DNA from: Candidatus Zixiibacteriota bacterium
GTDB lineage: Bacteria; Zixibacteria; MSB-5A5; SM1-73
Assembly (NCBI GenBank): GCA_049694315.1
Contig: JBAVQU010000021.1
Location: 20,372 to 84,371, forward strand
Reading direction: 5' to 3'
Length of the DNA: 64,000 bases
Shown here: one piece after another, positions 1-47,718 of the stretch
How the letters are laid out: the number at the start of each line of letters is the position of its first letter
Position numbering within the stretch: position 1 is the first letter of the stretch
Position numbers and translations under genes: made by a program
The notes under the pieces: generated by a model
Databases searched by the model: none
What the model saw: the letters and a program-made list of their open reading frames with translations, nothing else
What the model was told of the DNA's origin: nothing

Positions 1-1376
1 GACGATCTTCAGCCAATCCTGTGAGGGATTTTGATGCGGAGAGGTGACCACCTCCACCTCCTGTCCGCTGGAAAGAACGGTATTCAAGGGGATCATCTTT
101 CCGTCCACCTTAGCCCCAACGCAGTGATCACCTACCTGACTGTGAACCGCATAGGCAAAATCCAAAGGAGTGGATCCTTTAGGCAGTTGCTTCAGTTCCC
201 CTTTGGGAGTAAAGACGAAAATGTCGTCCCGATAGAGATCGATCTTGAGGTACTCCAAAAACTCCGACGGATTGGTCAGGTCCTTTTGCCACTCCAGCAT
301 CTCCCTTAACCAGGTCATCTGTTTGTCCGAATCGTCCGGCTCCTTTCGACCCTCTTTGTACAGCCAATGTGCGGCTATGCCGTATTCAGCCGTCCGGTGC
401 ATCTGATGAGTTCTGATCTGTATCTCCACCATCTTGCCCCGGGGACCGATCACCGTTGTATGAAGCGATTGGTACATGTTGGACTTGGGCAGGGCAATAT
501 AATCGCGGAAACGATCCGTCACCGGCATCCAGAGAGTATGAACTATGCCCAAAACATGATAGCAGTCTGCCTCCGTATCCAGGATGATGCGAATGGCAAA
601 GAGATCGTATATCTCCTCAAAAGGTTTTTCTCTTTTCTTCATCTTTCGATAGATGGAATCAAAATGCTTGGGTCTCCCGACTATCTCCGCCCTTATCCCT
701 GCCTTCTCCATCTCCCTACTCAAAGGCTTGGTGATCTCGGAGATATAGGCTTCCCGATCCTCTATTCTGGCGTTCACCTTCTTGACCAATTCATTATAAG
801 CCTCCGGATCCAAGTATTTCAGGGAGAGGTCCTCCAACTCCCATTTCACTCTGGCCATTCCAAAACGGTGTGCCAAGGGAGCGTAGACTTCACGCGTCTC
901 GGAGGCCACCCTCTTTTGCTTTTCTTTGTCCAGAGAGTCTAAGGTTCTCATGTTATGCAATCGGTCTGCCAGCTTGATGATTATCACCCGGATGTCTTTA
1001 GCCATAGAAAGAAGCATCTTCCGGAAGTACTCCACCTGCTCCTCTTCTAAGCTCTTGAATTTCAGCTCTCCGATTTTGGTGACTCCGTCCACCAAGAGGG
1101 CTATCTCCTCTCCGAACTCCTGCCCGACCTGCTCGATGGTTACGGAGGTGTCCTCTACTACGTCATGCAACAGGCCTGCCGCGATGGTAGCCGAGTCCAA
1201 GTGCTGCTCCGCTAAGATAAAAGCCACCTCCAGACAGTGTTCCAGATACGGCGTCTTCGATTCCCGGAACTGACCGCGGTGAGCCTTCGCCGAAAATTCG
1301 TATGCTTTTCTAACCAGTGAGATGTCGATGTTAGCGTTGAATGCTTCGACCGAGATTATGAATTCTGCCAGATTCA
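1..1376 (-). CDS. rel: Bifunctional (p)ppGpp synthetase/hydrolase of the RelA/SpoT family. Only the N-terminal part is present, covering the HD, synthetase and start of the TGS domain; the 3' end runs off the window start. Probable GTG start at 1376.
   Basis: Minus-strand translation of 1376..1 reads VNLAEFIISVEAFNANIDISLVRKAYEFSAKAHRGQFRESKTPYLEHCLEVA...LLHDVVEDT (HD domain), then ...DLFAIRIIL...QSLHTTVIGPRGK...EIQIRTHQMH (RelA_SpoT synthetase), then ...DDIFVFTPKGELKQLPKGSTPLDFAYAVHSQVG (TGS). An in-frame TAA lies just upstream of the GTG. Confidence 0.85.
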
Positions 1377-1525
1377 CTTACACCGCCTTCTGAATCGCCT
1401 TGGAAATCAGGCTCGGCCTTCAAATCGCTTCGGATTGGTTCCGCCAAGTAGTCGCTCTATCCATCGGACCTTCAGGCCAACCCACGCATCGGACACAACA
1501 GCCTTGAACTTGCTGGGTAACGGTC

Positions 1526-19030: not shown

Positions 19031-19080
19031 GTCAGGAGCCCCATGCTCCTGACTTATCTTGGTGTCAGGTGCGCAGGGCA
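19031..19080. repeat. Copy 2 of the 45-bp hairpin repeat
   Basis: Reads GTCAGGAGCCCCATGCTCCTGACTTATCTTGGTGTCAGGTGCGCAGGGCA. Confidence 0.7.
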
Positions 19081-19093
19081 GCTCACCTACTGG

Positions 19094-19570
19094 CTATTCC
19101 GACTCCATGTCTTCGATTTGTCTTTTCATCTCTCGCTTTTTGATTTCCAGCAATTTATTGAATTCTGCATTTTTCTCATTTTCGATGGCTTCAATCTTCG
19201 CTCGTAAAGAATACTCGAGACCGATCGCGCCCGGCTGCCTTTTGACTTCCTGCAGCTTTTCTCGCAAATACCTTAACTTTTCTCCATATTTAATATCGTA
19301 TTCAGTGTCCAAAGTCCGGCGGACGCTGTCATCCCAGACTTTTAAGTCTTCTTCGTGTCTTTGTCTAAGGACTTCTTTCTTAGTTTTTGTGTCTCTCCTC
19401 TTGAGGAAGTGTCTGCGCCAATCAAGCACCGTATCGGTGATTAGGGGAACAACAATAGCTCCCACAATAATCACAGATATTATCCTCCAGAATTTTCGTT
19501 TAAGACTCACTTCGAACCCAAGTATTTTTCTCATGGCTGAATTCCAAAAACTTACTCTATCATTTGTCAA
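19094..19570 (-). CDS. Hypothetical membrane-anchored coiled-coil protein of 158 aa
   Basis: It has a single TM helix (IISVIIVGAIVVPLI) followed by a highly charged K/E/R-rich predicted coiled coil. It is flanked by copies 2 and 3 of the hairpin repeat. Confidence 0.4.
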   Translation of the reverse strand: MTNDRVSFWNSAMRKILGFEVSLKRKFWRIISVIIVGAIVVPLITDTVLDWRRHFLKRRDTKTKKEVLRQRHEEDLKVWDDSVRRTLDTEYDIKYGEKLRYLREKLQEVKRQPGAIGLEYSLRAKIEAIENEKNAEFNKLLEIKKREMKRQIEDMESE

Positions 19571-19621
19571 CGCTTTTATTTAGTTATCAACTTTTTTTGA
19601 CGACCAAAAGAGCGTGAAGCC

Positions 19622-37435: not shown

Positions 37436-39355
37436 TCATACTCCCGAACTCGCTTTTGGGGTTTGAGCTTTTTTCGCAACCCTTGTTGGCCTTACCAGCT
37501 TCCTGACCGTCTGGACGATGCCCTCCTTACTCAAGCCCAAAATATCCAGAAGCTGGTTCCTCGAACCGTGCTGGATGAACTCGTCCGGAATACCCATCCG
37601 CTTGATCGTCACCTGGTTGAGAGCCTGGGACTCGGCAAACTCCAACACTGCAGATCCAAATCCACCCAAAAGCGCATTGTCCTCTACGGTAACGACCTTA
37701 TCGAATTCCCGCAACAGCGAAGTCAACATCTCTTCGTCCAACGGCTTGATGAACCGCGCGTTCACCACCTCCGCGTCTATCCCCTCATTCTGCAACTCAT
37801 ATGATGCCTGCGTGGCCGAATAAACCAAAGATCCTACCGCCAGAATTGCGACATCCTTCCCCTTTTTCAGCCTCTCCCAGCTTCCTATGGGTATGGGAGA
37901 AAACTCGTCTGTTACCGAATCGGGAATCTTCGTCCGGGGATACCGGATGGCCACCGGACCGTTTCCCCAGTTGACCGCGGTCTGAAGCATGTTTTTCAAT
38001 TCATTCCCGTCCTTCGGTGCCATCACCACCCAATTGGGAATCTGTCTGAGATAGCTTAAGTCGAAGACTCCATTATGGGTGGGACCATCTGCGCCCACTA
38101 CTCCGGCCCGGTCTATGGCCAGAATCACGGGTAAATTCTGCAGGGCGATGTCGTGAATCACCTGATCAAAGGCCCTCTGAAGAAACGTGGAGTATACGGC
38201 GAATACTGGTTTAAGACCCTGGGCGGCAAGTCCCGAGGCAAAACTGACGCCGTGTTGCTCGGCGATTCCTACGTCATAGAATCTCTGGGGAAAGGCTTTG
38301 GCAAAATCCATAAGCCCCGTGCCCAGGGTCATGGCTGCAGTAATCGCCACGATTCTCTCATCACTTGAGGCCAATTTGACCAACGTGCTTCCGAATACGT
38401 CTGTGTAAGTCATCTCTCCCGGATCACCGTTGGAGTCTCCACTCACTTTGTCAAAAGCGCCGATGCCGTGAAAGCGGGGAGCATCTTCTTCCGCATATTT
38501 GTAACCTTTCCCTTTCCTGGTTACGACGTGAAGCAAAATTGGTCCGTTTAAGGTCTTGAGCTGTTCCAGGATTTTGATCAATCCCCTAATGTCATGACCA
38601 TCCACCGGACCAAAATACCGGAATCCCAGTTTCTCAAAGAGGCTGCCTGGCACCAAGAATCCTTTGATTCCTTCTTCCACCTTAGCCACCATGGCCCTTA
38701 TCTTATCCCGTCTTTTGAACTTCCCCACCAGATCCCAGACCTCCGACTTAAGCTTGTTGTATTTTTCGTCGGTCAGAACGTCCGTCAGATATCGGGATAA
38801 AGCTCCCACATTCTTGGAGATAGACATCCTGTTGTCATTTAAGATCACGATTAAGTTCTTGCCTGAAGCCCCGGCATTATTCAGCCCCTCAAATGCCAGG
38901 CCGCCAGTCAAGGCACCGTCGCCGACGATGGCGATCACCGAGAATTTCTCTCCCTGGTGGTCTCGAGCACAGGCAATTCCCAAAGCAGAAGAGATGGAAG
39001 TGGAGGCATGCCCCACGCTAAAGACGTCATGCTCGCTTTCGGACCTCGAGGGAAAACCACTCAAGCCTTCGTATTCTCTCAAGGTCTGAAATCTATCCTT
39101 TCGTCCGGTGAGGAGCTTGTGCGCATAACACTGATGCCCCACGTCCCAGACGATCTTATCCTGGGGGGAGTCAAAAACCCGGTGGAGGGCTAACACCAGC
39201 TCCACCGCTCCTAAGTTGGAGGCTAAATGTCCTCCGTTCCTGGAGACCACGGTGATGATCCTGTCTCTGATCTCCTCTGCTAACTCACCCAATTTGTCGA
39301 CGGGAACGTTCTTCAGATCTTGAGGAGAGTTTACTAAGTCCAGCCACTTGGTCAT
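37436..39355 (-). CDS. dxs: 1-deoxy-D-xylulose-5-phosphate synthase
   Basis: Reads GGHLASNLGAVELVLALHRVFDSPQDKIVWDVGHQCYAHKLLTGR and has a TPP-binding GDG motif; it is 639 aa. Confidence 0.9.
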   Translation of the reverse strand: MTKWLDLVNSPQDLKNVPVDKLGELAEEIRDRIITVVSRNGGHLASNLGAVELVLALHRVFDSPQDKIVWDVGHQCYAHKLLTGRKDRFQTLREYEGLSGFPSRSESEHDVFSVGHASTSISSALGIACARDHQGEKFSVIAIVGDGALTGGLAFEGLNNAGASGKNLIVILNDNRMSISKNVGALSRYLTDVLTDEKYNKLKSEVWDLVGKFKRRDKIRAMVAKVEEGIKGFLVPGSLFEKLGFRYFGPVDGHDIRGLIKILEQLKTLNGPILLHVVTRKGKGYKYAEEDAPRFHGIGAFDKVSGDSNGDPGEMTYTDVFGSTLVKLASSDERIVAITAAMTLGTGLMDFAKAFPQRFYDVGIAEQHGVSFASGLAAQGLKPVFAVYSTFLQRAFDQVIHDIALQNLPVILAIDRAGVVGADGPTHNGVFDLSYLRQIPNWVVMAPKDGNELKNMLQTAVNWGNGPVAIRYPRTKIPDSVTDEFSPIPIGSWERLKKGKDVAILAVGSLVYSATQASYELQNEGIDAEVVNARFIKPLDEEMLTSLLREFDKVVTVEDNALLGGFGSAVLEFAESQALNQVTIKRMGIPDEFIQHGSRNQLLDILGLSKEGIVQTVRKLVRPTRVAKKAQTPKASSGV

Positions 39356-39364
39356 TCTGACCCC

Positions 39365-40456
39365 CTAAAAGCTTCGTGAGATCATGAAATCCGCCCAAGC
39401 CAATAGCAGCTTCTTATGGTGCGAGTCCGGCAGGACGTCAAGCTCCGGACGAGCCTCTTGGATGATTCGCTCGGCCATCCGCTTGGTCTCCGATATTCCG
39501 CCCAACTGAATCAGAAGCTGAGTGATTTCGCCCACCTCTTCTTCAGTCGCTTCTGGTTTGCCCAATACACTCTGCAGCTTAGCCTTCTGTTTGGGGGAAG
39601 CATTCCTGAAGGCATAGTAGATGATGGTGGTGCGCTTCCCCTCCCGAATGTCGGATCCCACCGGTTTACCCAACCGCTTTTCGTCGCCCACAATGCCCAG
39701 AATGTCGTCCTGCAATTGGAAAGCGGTGCCGCATTTGCTGGTGAAGCTGGATATGCCGACGATTCTCTTGTCGTCAGCCTCGGTCGTAGCCAATCCGATC
39801 ATGGCGCCAGCCTTGGCGGAGTATTCATACAGAGCGCCGGTTTTCCGCCACAGCATATCTAATATCGTTTCCGGCTCGAAGGATTCGACGGCCTGTCTGG
39901 AGAATTGGATGTCCAGAGTCTCGCCGGAAACTAAGGTGTTAAGCACGTATGATTCAAGCATCCGAATCAAGGTCAGGGTAACTTCGGGTCTGACGTTTCC
40001 CTTCAGGGAGCAATCGCACAGAAGGCTCACTGCCCATCCCTGTTGAACGTCGCCGGCGAGAATGGCAATGTCCCGGCCATAGTCTTTCGCCTGATTCTCG
40101 GTGTAGTTCATCTGCTGCCGGGCAATCATGGATGATTGGGCATGAACCGTATACCCGCCCCTTCTCCTTTCGTCATTGTCGATCAGATCGTCGTGCACCA
40201 GAGTCCAGGTGTGGAACATCTCCACTGCCGCGGCGGCCGGGATCGCCTCCTCTTCTTTGCCTCCTACCGCTCCGCAGGATAAAAGCAGAAGCGCCGGGCG
40301 CAGACGCTTTCCCGCGCGGTTGACGTAACTGTAGACTGCTTCTCTTAAGTGGGCCGGCTGAAACCACCTTTCGAACTCTTTTGATCTCAGATATGATGCT
40401 ACCCGTTTCTCTCGTTTTTCCAACTCCGCCAAGAGATCGACTGCCTGGGTTGCCAT
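39365..40456 (-). CDS. ispA: Polyprenyl diphosphate synthase, an IspA-like farnesyl/geranylgeranyl-PP synthase
   Basis: Has the first DDxxD (LVHDDLIDNDERRRG) and the second DD motif (FQLQDDILGIVGDEKRLGKPVGSDIREGKRT). Confidence 0.8.
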   Translation of the reverse strand: MATQAVDLLAELEKREKRVASYLRSKEFERWFQPAHLREAVYSYVNRAGKRLRPALLLLSCGAVGGKEEEAIPAAAAVEMFHTWTLVHDDLIDNDERRRGGYTVHAQSSMIARQQMNYTENQAKDYGRDIAILAGDVQQGWAVSLLCDCSLKGNVRPEVTLTLIRMLESYVLNTLVSGETLDIQFSRQAVESFEPETILDMLWRKTGALYEYSAKAGAMIGLATTEADDKRIVGISSFTSKCGTAFQLQDDILGIVGDEKRLGKPVGSDIREGKRTTIIYYAFRNASPKQKAKLQSVLGKPEATEEEVGEITQLLIQLGGISETKRMAERIIQEARPELDVLPDSHHKKLLLAWADFMISRSF

Positions 40457-40664
40457 CGTATTCCCCGTGCTGTATCAAACATCCAAAGAATCTAACCTAC
40501 TCATTGCAGGCGACTGGAAGGAGCGGAACCCTCCACCGAGATTGCCTTGTCGTCCCGCCAGAGGCGGCACTCTTCGCCATGATACTCCCCAAACACTCTC
40601 CCGGTGAAGAAAGCATAGCCTCGCAAGCCAAAAGACTAGGTTCTTCTCCACCCTCTACTGGAAA

Positions 40665-40964
40665 TCAGCCTTCTTCTTTCAAATCCAGCGGCTCAGTCTT
40701 GAATTCACTTTTAGCGGTCCTAACAAGTTTTTCTACTTTTTCTTCTGCCTGCGTCAACTTCTTCGTGCAAAAAGAAGAAAGCTCGACCCCTTCTTCAAAC
40801 TTCTTCACCGCCTCTTCCAAAGACAGCTCACCCTCCTCCAGCTCCAGCACAATCGCTTCCAGCCGGTTCAGTGCTTCTTCGAAGCTCTTCTCTTTTTTCT
40901 CCTTCGCAGATTTCTTGACCGTCAACCTCGCCTCTCCACAGCAATTTGAGATCCGCAGGTTCAT
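40665..40964 (-). CDS. xseB: Exodeoxyribonuclease VII small subunit
   Basis: Reads SFEEALNRLEAIVLELEEGELSLEEAVKKFEEGVELSSFCTKKL and has a 4-bp overlap with the xseA stop. Confidence 0.75.
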   Translation of the reverse strand: MNLRISNCCGEARLTVKKSAKEKKEKSFEEALNRLEAIVLELEEGELSLEEAVKKFEEGVELSSFCTKKLTQAEEKVEKLVRTAKSEFKTEPLDLKEEG

Positions 40965-42163
40965 TCCGAATCGACCAGCTCGACCTTCGACTCGATTCTT
41001 CCTTGGAAGAACTTCACCTCTATTAGATCATCTGCCTTCACCATTTTAGCTTCTTTGATTATCGCTAATTCAGGCAGTTTCCGGGCAATGGAATATCCTC
41101 TTTTCAGGACTGACGAAGGTGATAGGGCCTTAAGCTTCTCTTTCAGTAAAGATACGGCATTTGATTTCATTTCAAAGTAGTTTCTTGCACCGTCCGAAAG
41201 CTGCCTGGTCAGCTCGTCCGCCTCTTGGGACCGTTGAGTGATGATGTCCAACGGTCGTCTGAAACCGTAGCTTTCTTTCATGGCTGATAGCCGCTGCTGG
41301 GAGAACTCCAGCCGCGACTTCAAGGATGAGGCCAACCTCTTGATTTCGGCCTTTATCTCCTCCAAAAGCTCATCTCTATTCTGCACCAGCATCTGTGCGG
41401 CCGCAGAAGGGGTGGGCGCTCTTAAGTCCGCAACGAAATCCGAGATGGTGAAATCGATCTCGTGCCCCACGGCCGAGATCACCGGGATTTTCGAATCATA
41501 GATTGCTCTGGCCACCACTTCTTCGTTGAAAGCCCAGAGGTCCTCAAGAGAACCTCCTCCCCGGCCTACGATCATGACCTCGATTTTCTTATACCGGTTG
41601 AACTCTTTGATCGCCTCCGCAATCTCTTCTGCTGCACCCTCCCCTTGAACCCGCACCGGATTCACTATTATTTTTACGCTGGGAAAACGAGTATGGATGA
41701 CTCGAATTATGTCTCGGATTGCGGCGCCGGTGGGAGAGGTGACCACTCCGATAACCTCCGGGAACCGCGGAATGGGCTTTTTATGCTCCTCATTGAATAG
41801 CCCTTCTTCGGAAAGCTTCTCCTTCAGTCTTTGAAAGGCTATCTCCAGTCTGCCCAGACCGGCCGGCACCACATCAATCACGTCCAATTGATATTGCCCG
41901 TTTCTTTCATAGACGGACACACTGCCCAGCACAATGATTCTCATCCCGTCTTCCGGCTCAAAGTGCAGTCTCTCACCGCGAAATCTCCACAGGGTGCACC
42001 GGATCTGGGCCTTCTCGTCTTTTAAGGTGAAATACCGATGACCGGAGGAATGAAGAAGATAGTTGGAGATTTCCCCTTCCACCCACACATTGGGGAAATT
42101 CTGCTCAAGCAGGTCCTTTATCTCTCTGGTGATCTCCGTTACTGTGTAGATCTTTTCTCGCAT
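40961..42163 (-). CDS. xseA: Exodeoxyribonuclease VII large subunit
   Basis: Has an OB-fold N-terminus (MREKIYTVTEITREIKDLLEQNFPNVWVEGEISN) and a central catalytic region; the start is taken at MREK. Confidence 0.85.
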   Translation of the reverse strand: MREKIYTVTEITREIKDLLEQNFPNVWVEGEISNYLLHSSGHRYFTLKDEKAQIRCTLWRFRGERLHFEPEDGMRIIVLGSVSVYERNGQYQLDVIDVVPAGLGRLEIAFQRLKEKLSEEGLFNEEHKKPIPRFPEVIGVVTSPTGAAIRDIIRVIHTRFPSVKIIVNPVRVQGEGAAEEIAEAIKEFNRYKKIEVMIVGRGGGSLEDLWAFNEEVVARAIYDSKIPVISAVGHEIDFTISDFVADLRAPTPSAAAQMLVQNRDELLEEIKAEIKRLASSLKSRLEFSQQRLSAMKESYGFRRPLDIITQRSQEADELTRQLSDGARNYFEMKSNAVSLLKEKLKALSPSSVLKRGYSIARKLPELAIIKEAKMVKADDLIEVKFFQGRIESKVELVDSE

Positions 42164-42327
42164 GCTTGTCAGAATGATTCCTGTTTGAGAAATCAGGATA
42201 AACCTCTTGATCCTGGTTTTTCCTAACTTAAGCCCCCTTTTTTCGTGTTCACGTAAGAATATATGCTCGCGGAAAACGGATGTCAAACAATATGTCTGCC
42301 TCGACTTTCCGGCGAATGTTCATCAAC

Positions 42328-43047
42328 TCAACGATCGCCCGTCGCCGTGGCTATTAGTCCATCCAACAACATGCAATCGCGGCAGGCTTCGCTCCCCGGA
42401 GGCGCTAAATCGAGATCGTGGATCATCCTTACCTTCTTCAGAAGAGGGGGAATCTTCTGCTCCGGACTGAGTTTGAGCTGAAGAATGTGCCCGGCAAAGC
42501 CCATGAAAAATCCATCCTCTCTTAAGACGGAATCAAGTTCATCCTGTTCCAGATCAGTCTGAGGCTCCATGTAAACCAAAGCGATGCCGGAGACCGGATC
42601 AAATCCCTGCCGCTTTCCGATGTAAGCATAGGCGTTGAGCTGGATGTCGTACATGGGAAGCAGGCTATCCTGTGTTTGTGTGAATTTCGAGGTCTTATAG
42701 TCTACTATGAAGTACGAGCCGTCATCTTTCTTGAAGATCTCATCGGGCATGCCATTCAAAACGATGTTAGTCTGCTCATCAACTACCTTGAACTTAGAAT
42801 GATGAGGAACTTTCACTGGTTCACCCAGATCTCCCAACTCTGTCAGCCATGATGGCGGTTTTTGGTAGCGGGCGAAGTGAGCACCAGTCACTTTCTTGGT
42901 GTAGGAGTCGATGGAGCTGAATATCCCCGGAAAAATCTGGAAGGGAAGCTTATTCGCGCAGTGCATTTTGATCCAAAAACACCTAGGGCAGAAATTGGGT
43001 AGTGCTAACGCCCCCAGCTCCTTGGCTGAGATTTTTATCGGTTCCAT
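42328..43047 (-). CDS. PD-(D/E)XK nuclease of the RecB/Cas4-like family with an N-terminal CxxC and a C-terminal CxxC (probable Fe-S cluster)
   Basis: Carries GMPDEI, FIVDYKTS (D..D/E-x-K) and QLNAYAY (the RecB-family Q/Y motif). It has a Cys pair CPRC near the N-terminus and CRDC near the C-terminus. Confidence 0.5.
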   Translation of the reverse strand: MEPIKISAKELGALALPNFCPRCFWIKMHCANKLPFQIFPGIFSSIDSYTKKVTGAHFARYQKPPSWLTELGDLGEPVKVPHHSKFKVVDEQTNIVLNGMPDEIFKKDDGSYFIVDYKTSKFTQTQDSLLPMYDIQLNAYAYIGKRQGFDPVSGIALVYMEPQTDLEQDELDSVLREDGFFMGFAGHILQLKLSPEQKIPPLLKKVRMIHDLDLAPPGSEACRDCMLLDGLIATATGDR

Positions 43048-43094
43048 TTTTGCTCCCTTCGGTTATCAGTCGGTATGAATGAACAAAAAGAAAG

Positions 43095-43150
43095 ACTTCA
43101 GTCGGATCCTATCTCACTCCCTCTATTCTCCTCTTCATGATATGGAGAGG
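43095..43150. repeat. Second copy of the nested palindromic element (see 22036-22092)
   Basis: Reads ctcactccctctattctcctcttcatgatatggagagggggagtaaggagag. Confidence 0.55.
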
Positions 43151-43169
43151 GGGAGTAAGGAGAGAAGTT

Positions 43170-43682
43170 TCAAGAATTGCATTCCTTTTTCGAAACGAAA
43201 AATCTTAAGTATCTTTCTCCCTTGGGGGTTATTTGATAATACGTGTGATTGCGATGTTTGATCCACTTGTTATCTACTATTCCTTTTCGATATTGGATCA
43301 TCACCGGCTCGACGCGCTTCAGCAGTTTCAGTTCTTTCAGTTTCTTATGGCGCTCAAAAACCTGCTCTGGCTCGATATTCAGAGCGCCAGCCACCACCCA
43401 GGCGTAATCCACGCCCACCGCTTGGTGATGCCGGAGGATGCGAAAGTCGAGTTCATCCAGTTCATAATAATCCTTCTCCGGCTCATCCTCCTTCTTCTCT
43501 AATATCTCTTCCCAGGAGAGGGAAAAGAGCCTCTCAGGTTCAATCTTCTTCAGGTTGTCACAAGAAGCCTGGTGAACTACGAGCACATGGTTATAACTGT
43601 AATATCCCTTAATAGTGTCATCGGGATGAGGGGAACAGCACCGGGCTATCTTATAGCCTTCTTTCAGTCCCAGATCGCTCAC
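43170..43682 (-). CDS. Small protein combining a RelA/SpoT-type zinc-finger (CC/ZFD) motif with a C-terminal winged-helix-like region
   Basis: The N-terminal ARCCSPHPDDTIKGYYSYNHVLVVHQASCDNL aligns with the Rel ZFD signature AKCCxPxPGDxIVGxxxxGRGIxxHRxDCxN. The C-terminal part (LDELDFRILRHH...ITPKGERYL) looks like an Lrp/MarR-type wHTH. Confidence 0.45.
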   Translation of the reverse strand: MSDLGLKEGYKIARCCSPHPDDTIKGYYSYNHVLVVHQASCDNLKKIEPERLFSLSWEEILEKKEDEPEKDYYELDELDFRILRHHQAVGVDYAWVVAGALNIEPEQVFERHKKLKELKLLKRVEPVMIQYRKGIVDNKWIKHRNHTYYQITPKGERYLRFFVSKKECNS

Positions 43683-43867
43683 TGATATATACTCTCTCCA
43701 AGTGATCCCACCATAGAATAGCCAAATTCTCGCCTATGTCAAGCTCATCTTGCGATACTACTTGGGAAACCGAACCAGCAGGGGATTTCTGGGGTGTCAA
43801 GCTTCAGCTTGACCTGGGTGCGCCTGCCGGGTGAGTTGGTCTTGCGTGGAGGAAAAAGAAGAATATC

Positions 43868-43887
43868 CGTTTGGTTCACCTTAAGGT
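43868..43887. promoter_or_regulatory. Perfect 20-bp palindrome GGTTCACCTTAAGGTGAACC, a candidate operator about 190 bp upstream of the ZFD-wHTH gene
   Basis: It is an exact reverse-complement palindrome centred on TTAA, lying in the intergenic region between folD and the 43170..43682 gene. Confidence 0.35.
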
Positions 43888-44030
43888 GAACACTCCAAAT
43901 GCCGTCAAGCTATTGTGACGCCCGGTGCTTCAAGGAGCGCCCCTGTTCGATTTTCCATGTCTTCCGAAGCCATAAAGGCTCGGCTGCGCGTGGCGGAGGT
44001 TTTACACCTCCGCAAATCCGTTTTATCCGT

Positions 44031-44927
44031 TCAATCCGCTGACCGGAGTTCGCAAGCCCTAACCGTGTTGGAAAGAAGCATGGCGATGGTCATCGGTCCC
44101 ACGCCACCCGGGACCGGAGTGATGGCCCCGGCAATCTGGCTGACTGAATCGAAATCCACGTCTCCCACCAGTCTATGCCCGGACTTGGTCGACGGATCTT
44201 CTATGCGGTTGGTCCCGACATCAATCACCACCACGCCGGGTTTGACCATATCTTTAGTGACAAACTTTGCTTTCCCCATCGCCGCGATCAGGATGTCTGC
44301 CTGTCGGGTGATATTGGCCAAATCCTTAGTAGCGGTGTGACAAATGGTGACCGTAGCATTGGCCCCTTGGGCTTTCTGAAACAACATCATGGCAAGCGGT
44401 TTCCCCACCAGGCTGCCTCTGCCCAATATCACCACGTGCTTTCCCGAAGGATCATGTCCTGACCTCACCAGGAGTTCCTGTATGCCCAGCGGAGTGCAAG
44501 GTAAGAAAGCCGGCTTGCCCGCCACCATCATTCCCACGTTGAACGGATGAAAACCGTCCACGTCTTTCTTTGGGTCGATGGCTAAGATGACCTTCTCCTC
44601 GCTTATCTGCTCTGGAGTGGGGAACTGGACCAAAATCCCGTGTATGGTCGGTTTTCGATTCAGCTCGTCGACCTTTTCCAGAAGCTCAGATTCGGGCAAT
44701 TCCTTGGGATATCTGTTGACCTCAGAGTAGATCCCCGCCTCTTCACAGGCTTTGATTTTCATATTCACGTAAACCTGCGAGGCCGGATTATCCCCTACTA
44801 AGACGGCTGCCAATCCGGGAACCCGCCCGTTCTCTTTGAGCCTTTTGATCTTCTCTTTCAGACCGTCTTTGATTTCTAAAGAAATCTTCTTACCGTCAAT
44901 CATCTCCGCCGGCATGGCAACTCCCAT
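44031..44927 (-). CDS. folD: Bifunctional methylenetetrahydrofolate dehydrogenase/cyclohydrolase
   Basis: Reads IDGKKIS...PGLAAVLVGDNPASQVYV..K.KACEE.GI and VVILGRGSLVGKPLAMML; the architecture is FolD-typical. Confidence 0.85.
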   Translation of the reverse strand: MGVAMPAEMIDGKKISLEIKDGLKEKIKRLKENGRVPGLAAVLVGDNPASQVYVNMKIKACEEAGIYSEVNRYPKELPESELLEKVDELNRKPTIHGILVQFPTPEQISEEKVILAIDPKKDVDGFHPFNVGMMVAGKPAFLPCTPLGIQELLVRSGHDPSGKHVVILGRGSLVGKPLAMMLFQKAQGANATVTICHTATKDLANITRQADILIAAMGKAKFVTKDMVKPGVVVIDVGTNRIEDPSTKSGHRLVGDVDFDSVSQIAGAITPVPGGVGPMTIAMLLSNTVRACELRSAD

Positions 44928-44950
44928 TCATACAGGCTTTTCTTTCGCTG

Positions 44951-45790
44951 TTAAAGCGCTCCTCTGTCGTCTTCCCTTTCTTCCTCTTCCGGCCGGGGCA
45001 CGTCTATTCTGATCCTCTCTGCTTTTGACGCTTTCCCGGTGTCCGGATCAAGTGTAATCAGCACCCCGGAGAATTTCACGTCCCTCTTGGCCAAAGTAAA
45101 GCGGCGGGGAATCTGCGTGAGAAAGCGACCGATGGCATCCTCTTTGGTTATCCCAATCACGGAATCGTGTGCACCGGTCATTCCGGCGTCGGTTATGTAG
45201 GCTGTCCCCTGTGGGAGCACAGTCTCATCTGCAGTCTGAACGTGAGTGTGACTTCCCAAGACGGCTGAAACCCTTCCATCCAGGTACCAACCCAAGGCCA
45301 CCTTCTCGGAGGTGGCTTCGGCGTGCACGTCCACTACGATGAAGTGTGTCTGCTCTCTCAGTTTTTCAGTTTCTATGTCCGCCACCCGAAAAGGGCACTC
45401 TATTTCCTTTATATAGACCCTCCCCTGTAGGTTCAAGACTCCGATCTTATGTCCGTTCTTAGACTCGAATATGGCCACTCCCCTTCCCGGTACTCCGGGC
45501 GGGTAATTGGCAGGTCTTAAAACGCGTTGGTCTTCGTTTAGGTAAGGGTAGATATCTTTTCGATCCCAGATGTGATTGCCGCTGGTAAGGCAATCGACGC
45601 CATAAGAGTGAATCTTCTTGGCTATCTCTTTGGTCAGGCCGAACCCGCCCGCCGCATTTTCGACATTGGCGATGGTGAAGTCTATCTGGTGAGTCTTCTT
45701 GATGTCGGGCAGAACCTGGGAGACTGCCCATCTCCCCGGCCTTCCCACGATGTCTGCAATAAACAGGATATTCAAATCACGCTTCCCCAA
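44951..45790 (-). CDS. ymdB: YmdB-family (TIGR00282) metallophosphoesterase
   Basis: Reads ILFIADIVGRPGR...ANVENAAGGFGLT...SGNHIWD...GSHTHVQTADE. It is adjacent to rny, as in Bacillus. Confidence 0.8.
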   Translation of the reverse strand: MGKRDLNILFIADIVGRPGRWAVSQVLPDIKKTHQIDFTIANVENAAGGFGLTKEIAKKIHSYGVDCLTSGNHIWDRKDIYPYLNEDQRVLRPANYPPGVPGRGVAIFESKNGHKIGVLNLQGRVYIKEIECPFRVADIETEKLREQTHFIVVDVHAEATSEKVALGWYLDGRVSAVLGSHTHVQTADETVLPQGTAYITDAGMTGAHDSVIGITKEDAIGRFLTQIPRRFTLAKRDVKFSGVLITLDPDTGKASKAERIRIDVPRPEEEEREDDRGAL

Positions 45791-46155
45791 GACTTGGTTT
45801 CAAAAGGGTCTACTGCCCTCGAGATGACGATGCCTGCAAAAAACCGAGAAATCAATCTTGTCGATCTTGACAGGTAAGCGTCATGCCGGCCCGGAGCATT
45901 CCCATGACAGGACACCTTCTCCGGCAGGCGAGAGTAGTAGCAGACGCCGACCACAAAGGATAGCGGGGTTATGGTCATGGCCACAGCTTCATTTCTTCTC
46001 ATCTAATGCCACTTTCCATCCGATCTAGCTGCGAGGCGTCGGTCCAGCGTCCCGGTATCCAATTCAGGTCGGGCAATGGTCCAACCAGAATAGATCGGCA
46101 TCGGCCAACACCAGATAACCCCCGACGACACTATCCTCGTGGCGATCGCCTTTTC

Positions 46156-47718
46156 TTACTTCGCATATTCAACTGCCCTGGTCTCGCGGATCACGGTGAC
46201 TTTGATTTGTCCGGGATACTCCAGCTCAGCCTCGATCTTCTTTGCCATCTCCGCCGCCAGCTCTAATGCGCCCTGGTCATCAATCCGCTCGTGCTCCACG
46301 ATGACCCTGATCTCCCTTCCGGCCTGTATGGCATACGACTTGGCCACGCCCTTGAAGGAATCAGCCAACTCTTCTAATTTCTCCAGTCTCTTGATGTATC
46401 CTTCCAAAGTCTCGCGCCGGGCACCCGGTCTGGCGCCGGAGATGGCGTCAGCCGCTTGCACCAGGACAGAATAAGCCGACTCGGAGATCACGTCTTCGTG
46501 GTGGGAAGCGATGGCATTTAAAACCATCGGATTCTCTCCGTACTTCTGGGCTACGTTATACCCTATCTGGGTGTGCGTCCCCTCCGTCTCCCGGTCTACT
46601 GCCTTACCGATGTCGTGCAGTAGGCCGGCCCGCTTGGCTAAGTTGGAGTCCAAGCCCAGCTCCGCCGCCATCAATCCGGACAAAAACGCCACCTCCTTGC
46701 TGTGCTGCAGGACGTTCTGACCATAGCTGGTGCGGAACTGAAGCTTGCCTAAGAGTTTCACCAGCTCGGGATGTACTCCGTGTATGCCCACGTCGAAAGA
46801 GGCCTGCTCCCCGGTCTCGCGTATGATGACTTCCATCTCTTTTTCCGCCTTGGTTACCACCTCCTCGATCCGCGCCGGGTGAATTCTGCCGTCGGTGGTC
46901 AGCTTTTCCAAGGCCATCCGGGCGATCTCTCGTCTTATGGGATCATAGCCCGAAAGTATCACCGCCTCCGGCGTATCGTCCACGATCACGTCGATGCCGG
47001 TGGCAGTCTCAAAAGAGCGAATGTTCCTCCCCTCTCTTCCGATGATCCGGCCTTTCATCTCGTCATTGGGAAGACTCACCACCGATACCGTAGACTCCAC
47101 GGTATGATCGGCGGCACACCTCTGAATGGCGGAGATGATGATATTCTTAGCCTCCTTTTCGGCGGTTTGCTCCGCCTGTTCCTTGATTTCCTTGATGAAC
47201 TGAGCGGCCTCCTGCCGAGCCTGGCTTTCCAAATTCTCCATCAAGAGCTTCTTGGCCTCCTCCGAGGTCATCTGGGCTATCTTTTCTAACTGTTTGTTCT
47301 GATCGGCGATCAACCGATCCAGCTCGTCGCTTTTGGTCCGGACCGCCTTCTCTCTGGCAAACAGTATCTTCTCCCGGTTCTGGACGTCTCTCTCTTTCTT
47401 ACCGAGTATGTCTACCTTGCGGTCTAAGTGGATCTCCCGCTCCGAGAGCCTTTTTTCCAGCCGTCCGAATTCGGCTTTCTTGATTTGAAGCTCTTTCTCG
47501 AAGTTGACTTTCGCCTTATACCACTCGTCCTTGGCCTCTAAGACGGCCTCCTTCTTCTTGATCTCCGATTCTTTCTCCGCCTCTTCTATGATCTTCTTCG
47601 CCAGTTCGTCGGCCTTGCCTAACTTCATCTGGCCTATTCTGCGGCTGATGAACCATCCCAAAAAGAAGGCCACAACCACCGCGCCTGAGGCAATGGCAAT
47701 AAGCATCCAGTTGCTCAT
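46156..47718 (-). CDS. rny: Ribonuclease Y
   Basis: Has an N-terminal TM, a long coiled coil, a KH domain ([15 protein letters not shown]) and an HD domain (HSKEVAFL...LLHDIGK). Confidence 0.9.

Follow-up and report, generated by a model that had tools for sequence, protein, structure and literature searches.

A stand-alone Rel-type zinc-finger domain joined to a DUF2250 winged helix, and a neighbouring Cas4/RecB-like nuclease, in Candidatus Zixiibacteriota

The zinc-finger domain (ZFD) of RelA/Rel, also named CC or RIS, is treated in the literature that we found solely as an internal regulatory domain of the long RSH enzymes (Rel, RelA and SpoT). It is the key ribosome-binding element of RelA, acting via the A-site finger (PMC5829649, PMC7797070). 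A small zinc-finger-like sensor outside the long RSH context occurs in CapRel, a fused toxin–antitoxin, in the form of a pseudo-ZFD (PMC9712102). Here we describe a free-standing and conserved ZFD that is joined to a winged helix of the DUF2250 family. The gene for this 170-aa protein lies in a stretch of 64,000 nt (contig JBAVQU010000021.1, positions 20,372–84,371) from a Candidatus Zixiibacteriota bacterium; the window, as used below, is this whole stretch. A gene for a 239-aa nuclease lies immediately downstream. The best explanation, towards which we lean with less than even confidence, is that two independent genes came to stand side by side, one encoding a zinc-containing winged-helix regulator and the other a separate housekeeping nuclease.

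The first-pass annotation had placed two reading frames between 42328 and 43682 and had read one of them as a Rel-type ZFD joined to a winged helix–turn–helix (wHTH) domain. Both reading frames are present there on the minus strand, and the quoted peptide is residues 13–44 of the 170-aa protein. The gene for this protein (43170–43682, minus strand, GTG start) encodes a ZFD at residues ~9–60, an acidic linker at residues ~61–74 and a DUF2250 winged helix at residues ~75–170. Alignment of the N-terminal motif with C-terminal RelA/SpoT models, on which the annotation depended, was found. Residues 10–64 match positions 555–607 of the 687 positions in the NCBIfam model TIGR00691 (spoT_relA; E 4.3e-8), and a 35-member family profile matches the ZFD of Bacillus subtilis Rel (6htq, E 4e-7) and of Escherichia coli RelA (5kps, 5iqr and 5l3p, E ~1e-5) among structures in the Protein Data Bank (PDB). 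The homology to long RSH enzymes covers ~50 residues (E 4e-8 to 1e-5), with the same Cys-Cys...His...Cys spacing and a terminal Trp. When the protein was aligned with ten long RSH enzymes, the CC...H...C ligands and the closing Trp lined up exactly, and the residues that flank the ligands (A-x-CC-x-P, G-Y/F, V-H and R-L...W) were also kept. The ligands C15, C16, H37 and C41 are invariant across the ZFD–DUF2250 family. The precomputed Pfam architecture is PF28438 RelA_RIS plus PF10007 DUF2250, and RelA_RIS is present in all listed family members. On sequence grounds the N-terminal domain is a homologue of the RelA/Rel ZFD, in which all four predicted zinc ligands (Cys-Cys-His-Cys) are kept.

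The rest of the protein differs from a long RSH enzyme. No TGS, helical, ACT/RRM, HD or SYNTH domain was found in it with Pfam and NCBIfam; the ZFD stands at the N-terminus and DUF2250 comes after it. The whole-model TIGR00691 score is 31.9 bits against a cut-off of 499, and the RSH catalytic domains are lacking. The protein is predicted to be incapable of making or degrading (p)ppGpp. The pseudo-ZFD of CapRel differs in another way, in that it has no cysteines, is a topological zinc-finger analogue only and autoinhibits toxSYNTH, a domain absent from the 170-aa protein. No sequence relationship between the CapRel pseudo-ZFD and the ZFD described here was found.

The DUF2250 match spans residues 76–161 (model positions 7–92 of 93), with an E value of 3.6e-13 and a score of 49.9 bits against a Pfam cut-off of 24.4. 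The invariant wing motif, K139-W-I-K-H-R-N-H-T-Y-Y149, contains the wing signature K-H-x-N-H-T-Y-Y, and its H-T-Y-Y portion is invariant in 19 of 19 diverse DUF2250 domains that were aligned. The winged helix has a MarR/PadR-like fold. PadR scores lie below cut-off both in Pfam (16.7 versus 27 bits) and in NCBIfam (18.2 versus 112), and the likeness to MarR/PadR is one of fold only. The first-pass annotation had recognized neither this architecture nor that of the nuclease as a described family. This needs amendment in one respect, since Pfam and NCBI label both domains and the ZFD–DUF2250 architecture already bears a label in each. The literature search nevertheless found no paper describing that architecture, and no functional study of DUF2250 or of stand-alone ZFD proteins.

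A long Rel is encoded at the edge of the window, where its N-terminal 459 codons (HD, SYNTH and TGS; 1–1377, minus strand) run off the end. Only this part of Rel is visible in the window, and the ZFD is otherwise known solely inside long RSH enzymes; the 170-aa protein could on that account be a fragment split from Rel, which would supply the lost C-terminal regulatory domains in trans. This explanation was rejected, and we give it practically no credence. Zixibacteria Rel orthologues (L093 and L108), which share 83–89% identity with the 459-residue window fragment, are full-length proteins of 722–733 aa that carry their own ZFD (FAQCCQPVPGE...HRSDC) and ACT domains, which refutes a split for close relatives. 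In addition, the wHTH sits in the 170-aa protein where Rel has ACT. Because the orthologues are full-length, with ZFD and ACT, the 170-aa protein is taken to be an additional copy of the ZFD and not a piece of a split Rel. Judging from the same orthologues, the source genome should retain a complete Rel with its own ZFD, of which the window shows the N-terminal part. Elsewhere in the window, a 174-aa ORF (19059–19583, plus strand) with no Pfam match showed weak tblastn similarity (E 3e-4) to the helical region of a long RSH, which is probably coiled-coil noise.

A scan of one genome per species returned 319 genomes with a relative of the 170-aa protein, and the best 80 of the 319 were analysed. 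These 80 all cover both domains and nearly all are Zixibacteria, GN15 or metagenome-assembled genomes (MAGs) of the FCB group. Identity is 50–77% over the phylum and the wing motif is invariant. The architecture is therefore carried by at least 80 species-level genomes, almost all of one phylum, and stands alongside an intact Rel. Neighbouring genes were clustered without prior assumptions at 76 loci, and the commonest partner reaches no more than 31 of them. This partner is a gene for a DUF819 membrane protein, which is divergent from the ZFD gene in 31/76 loci and directly adjoins it in 26 of these. Downstream, 27/76 loci encode a secreted Met-zincin. A nitroreductase gene lies near in 19/76 and is the immediate neighbour in nine, often only 8–25 bp off, and thioredoxin is the immediate downstream gene in 13/76. 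Further recurrent neighbours encode a LOG-like protein, PfkA, GlnA, an RluD-type pseudouridine synthase, TldD/PmbA and Pcm. Upstream in the window lies folD (44031–44927, minus strand), which adjoins the ZFD gene in just four of the 80 related loci.

The ZFD gene also has a promoter of its own. A sigma-70-like promoter (TTGACA, 16 nt, TATTCT) is present at 43715–43742 on the minus strand, and the same TTGACA-16-TATTCT arrangement is kept in the close relatives L009 and L023. Given this conservation, transcription of the gene probably does not depend on folD. The ZFD–DUF2250 gene behaves as a self-contained, single-copy gene that is found throughout the phylum, has a separate promoter and varies in its neighbours. 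In the clade of the window, a leader of ~30 nt with a GGAG-type ribosome-binding site precedes the gene. In deeper Zixibacteria clades (L024, L031, L034, L036, L053 and about 20 other loci), inspection of the 30 nt before the start codon showed a TATATT box, often TGnTATATT, which ends 5–6 nt before the start, with no Shine–Dalgarno sequence. This suggests that the ZFD mRNA is probably leaderless in those clades.

The first-pass annotation had joined the ZFD gene and the nuclease gene in a small stress or defence module, in which a regulator would sense a ribosome- or nucleotide-related signal and control or partner the nuclease, and had placed the pair between folD and xseA. The placement is correct, the local order being folD – ZFD gene – nuclease – xseA. 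The two genes are on the same strand, 122 bp apart, and no intrinsic terminator, promoter or structured RNA was called in the 122-bp spacer (fold z-score −0.15). The same direct adjacency recurs in the complete genome CP070839, and the nuclease gives weak matches to PADLOC Cas4 models. These points favour a module, but the census of neighbourhoods largely refutes it and we consider it highly improbable. Window proteins were searched with tblastn against the 80 related loci, and the nuclease was counted if within 10 kb of the ZFD gene. It was found in 9/80, all close relatives (at least 62% identity). Downstream sequence of at least 4 kb was available for 53 loci; when these were divided by identity of the ZFD protein, the nuclease was present in eight of the 13 at 59% or more and in none of the 40 below. 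Even within this shallow clade the linkage is mostly interrupted, the commonest order being ZFD gene – thioredoxin – (aminotransferase) – nuclease – xseA; of the nine loci that bear the nuclease, eight have the thioredoxin gene beside the ZFD gene. The thioredoxin gene is missing only in the window genome, L012 and L017, and in L012 a short unannotated ORF still intervenes. The nuclease gene is close to the ZFD gene here because the thioredoxin gene, which in some relatives is accompanied by the aminotransferase gene, is absent. In L008 and L011, folD adjoins the ZFD gene, yet neither the nuclease nor xseA lies downstream.

The surroundings likewise do not resemble a defence locus. PADLOC gave no match for the ZFD protein, there is no CRISPR repeat array in the 64-kb window, and no cas or mobile-element genes were seen near the pair, which is surrounded by housekeeping genes. 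Both proteins are conserved like housekeeping genes, unlike fast-evolving defence genes, and the nuclease family is found widely where the ZFD protein is absent. The adjacency of the two genes is a shallow, lineage-specific accident of synteny and not a defence module. The conserved partner of the nuclease in the close clade is xseA, since xseA-xseB-ispA-dxs follows the nuclease in nine of the nine loci that bear it. In the window, xseA (exonuclease VII large subunit; 40961–42286, minus strand) is followed by xseB, ispA and dxs, within a co-directional block that runs thrS, infC, pheS, pheT, rny, ymdB, folD, the two genes, xseA, xseB, ispA, dxs, nadK and a recN-like gene. The region 37436–47718 (minus strand) resembles the folD-xseA-xseB-ispA-dxs...recN block of B. 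subtilis, and the two genes therefore break a widely conserved folD–xseA junction.

The nuclease gene (42328–43047, minus strand) encodes a stand-alone Cas4/RecB-type PD-(D/E)XK nuclease. The protein matches PDDEXK_1 (PF12705) with an E value of 6.6e-8 and 33.2 bits against a cut-off of 22, and D102, D116-Y-K118, Q136, Y140, C20, C23, C222 and C225 do not vary among 24 homologues drawn from several phyla. The description as Cas4/RecB-like, with CxxC pairs near both termini, is right, because the PDDEXK_1 threshold is passed and the catalytic residues and four Cys are invariant. The predicted catalytic residues are D102, D116, K118, Q136 and Y140, and C20/C23 and C222/C225 are the predicted metal-binding pairs. 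The protein falls below threshold for the Cas4, AddA, AddB and RecB models, with 22.7 bits against a cut-off of 65 for Cas4 TIGR00372 and no more than 26.7 bits for the PADLOC Cas4 models; PADLOC returned weak generic Cas4 or DruK-like matches only. A search of PDB sequences with the nuclease gave no match, and its family placement among known structures came from fold comparison alone. The nearest known group is the Cas4/AddB/AdnB/Dna2/Exo5 clade of PD-(D/E)XK nucleases, from which it differs in its sub-threshold Cas4 score, the lack of cas genes or a CRISPR array nearby, its 2+2 arrangement of Cys and the lack of a fused helicase.

The invariant Cys stand where the N- and C-terminal helices begin, giving a 2+2 (CxxC...CxxC) pattern. 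Cas4 and AddB have a 1+3 Cys pattern. The earlier label of an Fe-S nuclease is plausible, the sequence being compatible with iron–sulfur and with zinc alike. The metal centre, of either kind, may staple the N- and C-terminal helices together. The 239-aa protein is best read as a separate housekeeping DNA-end nuclease of the Cas4/RecB family, belonging to the xseAB-recN repair neighbourhood.

The nuclease family comprises 1801 clusters. Homologues at 58–60% identity occur in Dadabacteria, where the gene lies after leuS, and in other taxa; further settings are a mobile region, where a cREC_REC gene precedes the homologue, and a group of metabolic genes. No ZFD protein was found beside nuclease homologues of other phyla in the contexts examined. 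For annotation, the lesson is that the adjacent Cas4-like nuclease should be read neither as a partner nor as a defence gene, but as a member of a broad stand-alone family that is linked to exonuclease VII in this clade. At locus L086 (4691–5711), a homologue with 59% identity overlaps the preceding cREC_REC receiver-domain gene by 14 bp, and the region also has an integrase and an IS21-type transposase; there the family may belong to a mobile or conflict system. In addition, a Zixibacteria protein of 414 aa (P0232), with the source name ‘RNA-binding domain-containing protein’, is a nuclease homologue with a C-terminal PF04326 domain.

We tentatively read the 170-aa protein as a stand-alone, conserved Zixibacteria regulator, whose gene has a promoter of its own and keeps no constant partner in an operon. 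The DUF2250 winged helix would bind nucleic acid, and the protein would most likely be a dimeric transcription factor that acts on DNA. The zinc knuckle (Cys2-His-Cys), which derives from Rel, would serve as a sensor or partner-binding module, possibly in the form of a zinc–thiolate switch that answers oxidants or thiol stress. If this is correct, a ribosome-binding zinc knuckle has been reused as a sensor domain. The MarR/PadR-like fold is consistent with such a regulator. Stand-alone DUF2250 genes placed like local regulators, at cluster ends (Caldicellulosiruptor and Ammonifex) or next to sulfur genes (Athalassotoga), point the same way. So do the divergent pairing with DUF819 in 26 Zixibacteria loci and the adjacency to thioredoxin (13 loci) and nitroreductase (nine loci) genes. 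Such close neighbours are a typical feature of wHTH regulators that sense thiols or redox state.

Several observations weigh against a DNA-binding regulator. The helix that stands at the recognition-helix position shows poor conservation among DUF2250 proteins, while the wing KHxNHTYY is invariant; such a combination is unusual for sequence-specific DNA readers. No conserved operator upstream of the ZFD gene was found across relatives. The thioredoxin and nitroreductase adjacency is weak evidence, because it may reflect two or three ancestral arrangements. The arrangement of the two domains in the AF2 model (pTM 0.57) is unreliable. Finally, the sole documented role of the Rel ZFD is binding to the A-site finger of 23S rRNA (PMC5829649).

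This last point leads to a different explanation, which we regard as possible though unlikely, namely that the protein is a ribosome-docking factor and not a transcription factor. The ZFD would retain its ancestral role and bind H38 of 23S rRNA, the A-site finger, between the ribosomal subunits. DUF2250 would contact RNA or a ribosomal protein, and the protein would modulate Rel or compete with it, or else signal the state of the ribosome. If so, a small factor of a new type would act at the Rel docking site, and DUF2250, which has no assigned function, would gain one. Anchoring at the A-site finger is the known role of the ZFD in RelA (PMC5829649, PMC7797070), and here the zinc ligands and their flanking residues are all kept. 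The 50–77% identity and the invariant wing would also suit a ribosomal role. In the window the gene lies within a translation and RNA block (thrS-infC-pheST-rny-ymdB-folD), and in four loci a gene for an RluD-type pseudouridine synthase lies 9–18 bp upstream. Constant linkage to ribosomal or translation genes was, however, not found over the 76 loci, and an isolated ZFD without RRM/ACT and TGS may bind ribosomes weakly.

Other proteins with DUF2250, which were found by whole-protein search and with a profile of the domain, bear on both explanations. Stand-alone DUF2250 proteins of ~108 aa occur in thermophilic Firmicutes, Desulfurella and a Thermotogae species, and tandem forms in Sulfolobus, Archaeoglobus and Halobacteria. 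Both share the winged helix and the K-H-x-N-H-T-Y-Y signature with the 170-aa protein but have no ZFD. The Firmicute stand-alone genes lie in clusters of NIR_SIR (sulfite-reductase-like), DsrE and TatD genes, at the end of which they stand (L088, 2752–5327; L089, 2721–5330). L088 is a metagenome contig with the Caldicellulosiruptor saccharolyticus Csac_1648 protein and L089 is the Ammonifex degensii genome. In Athalassotoga (L090), DUF2250 comes after sulfur-transport and ferredoxin genes. The tandem archaeal proteins are annotated as predicted regulators, and in one Peptococcaceae MAG DUF2250 is fused to HPPK (folK; P0296, 271 aa). None of these contexts, stand-alone beside sulfur-metabolism genes, HPPK-fused or archaeal, is ribosomal, which speaks against a docking factor. 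The ZFD–DUF2250 gene of the window, beside folD, also adjoins a folate gene, as in the HPPK fusion; this may be coincidence.

The fusions of DUF2250 to domain 1 of RF1 speak for ribosome docking, as this domain is another ribosome-docking module. These proteins of ~215 aa are found in Bipolaricaulota and a spore-forming Firmicute (P0265, P0274, P0277, P0287, P0332; L091, 5001–5663), and their N-terminus matches residues 4–102 of RF1 in the PDB (E 7e-7). One such gene sits between holA and rpsT in the spore-former. They share the plan of the 170-aa protein, which is a borrowed module of an A-site factor, an acidic linker and a C-terminal DUF2250; they differ in having the three-helix RF1 domain 1 instead of a zinc finger and KHMNHTYY as the wing. 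RF1 domain 1 sits near the L11 stalk. By analogy, DUF2250 might generally be a winged helix that works at the ribosome and is repeatedly fused to docking modules of A-site factors (the Rel ZFD and RF1 domain 1), an idea that we rate slightly below docking of the 170-aa protein itself. The Zixibacteria protein would on this analogy be a small trans-acting factor that occupies the Rel docking site to tune the stringent response, or that senses the state of the ribosome.

Returning to the reading as a regulator, candidate operators were sought in the spacer between folD and the ZFD gene. The first-pass annotation had pointed to a 20-bp palindrome at 43868 as a binding site. The perfect palindrome, GTTCACCTTAAGGTGAAC, is in fact 18 bp long, lies at 43874–43891 and is seen in this genome alone. 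It aligns with a terminator-like hairpin (a GC stem followed by TTTTT, read by eye) directly after folD in L009, and its fold energy is unremarkable. It was rejected as an operator on these grounds and more probably marks where the folD transcript ends.

No operator is shared among the 26 divergent DUF819–ZFD spacers, where the only common elements are two promoters, the TATATT box of the ZFD gene and TTGTCA...TATAAT of the DUF819 gene. A second candidate in the folD–ZFD spacer is a perfect 8-2-8 inverted repeat, GTCAAGCT-TC-AGCTTGAC (GTCAAGCTTCAGCTTGAC), at 43796–43813. The 8-mer AGCTTGAC occurs in nine copies in the window against ~2 expected. Four of these are in the spacer (43738, 43796, 43806 and 43904), within 174 bp (43738–43911), and one of them overlaps the −35 box of the ZFD promoter. 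As a general operator, GTCAAGCT-N2-AGCTTGAC was rejected, as it is not kept in close relatives. It is regarded as a lead only, because of this lack of conservation. Related loci, 1.48 Mb in all, contain only 10 sites that resemble it loosely. One of these, 115 bp upstream of rel in L096 (2885–2902), is a near-identical inverted repeat, and a looser copy lies upstream of the ZFD gene in L068.

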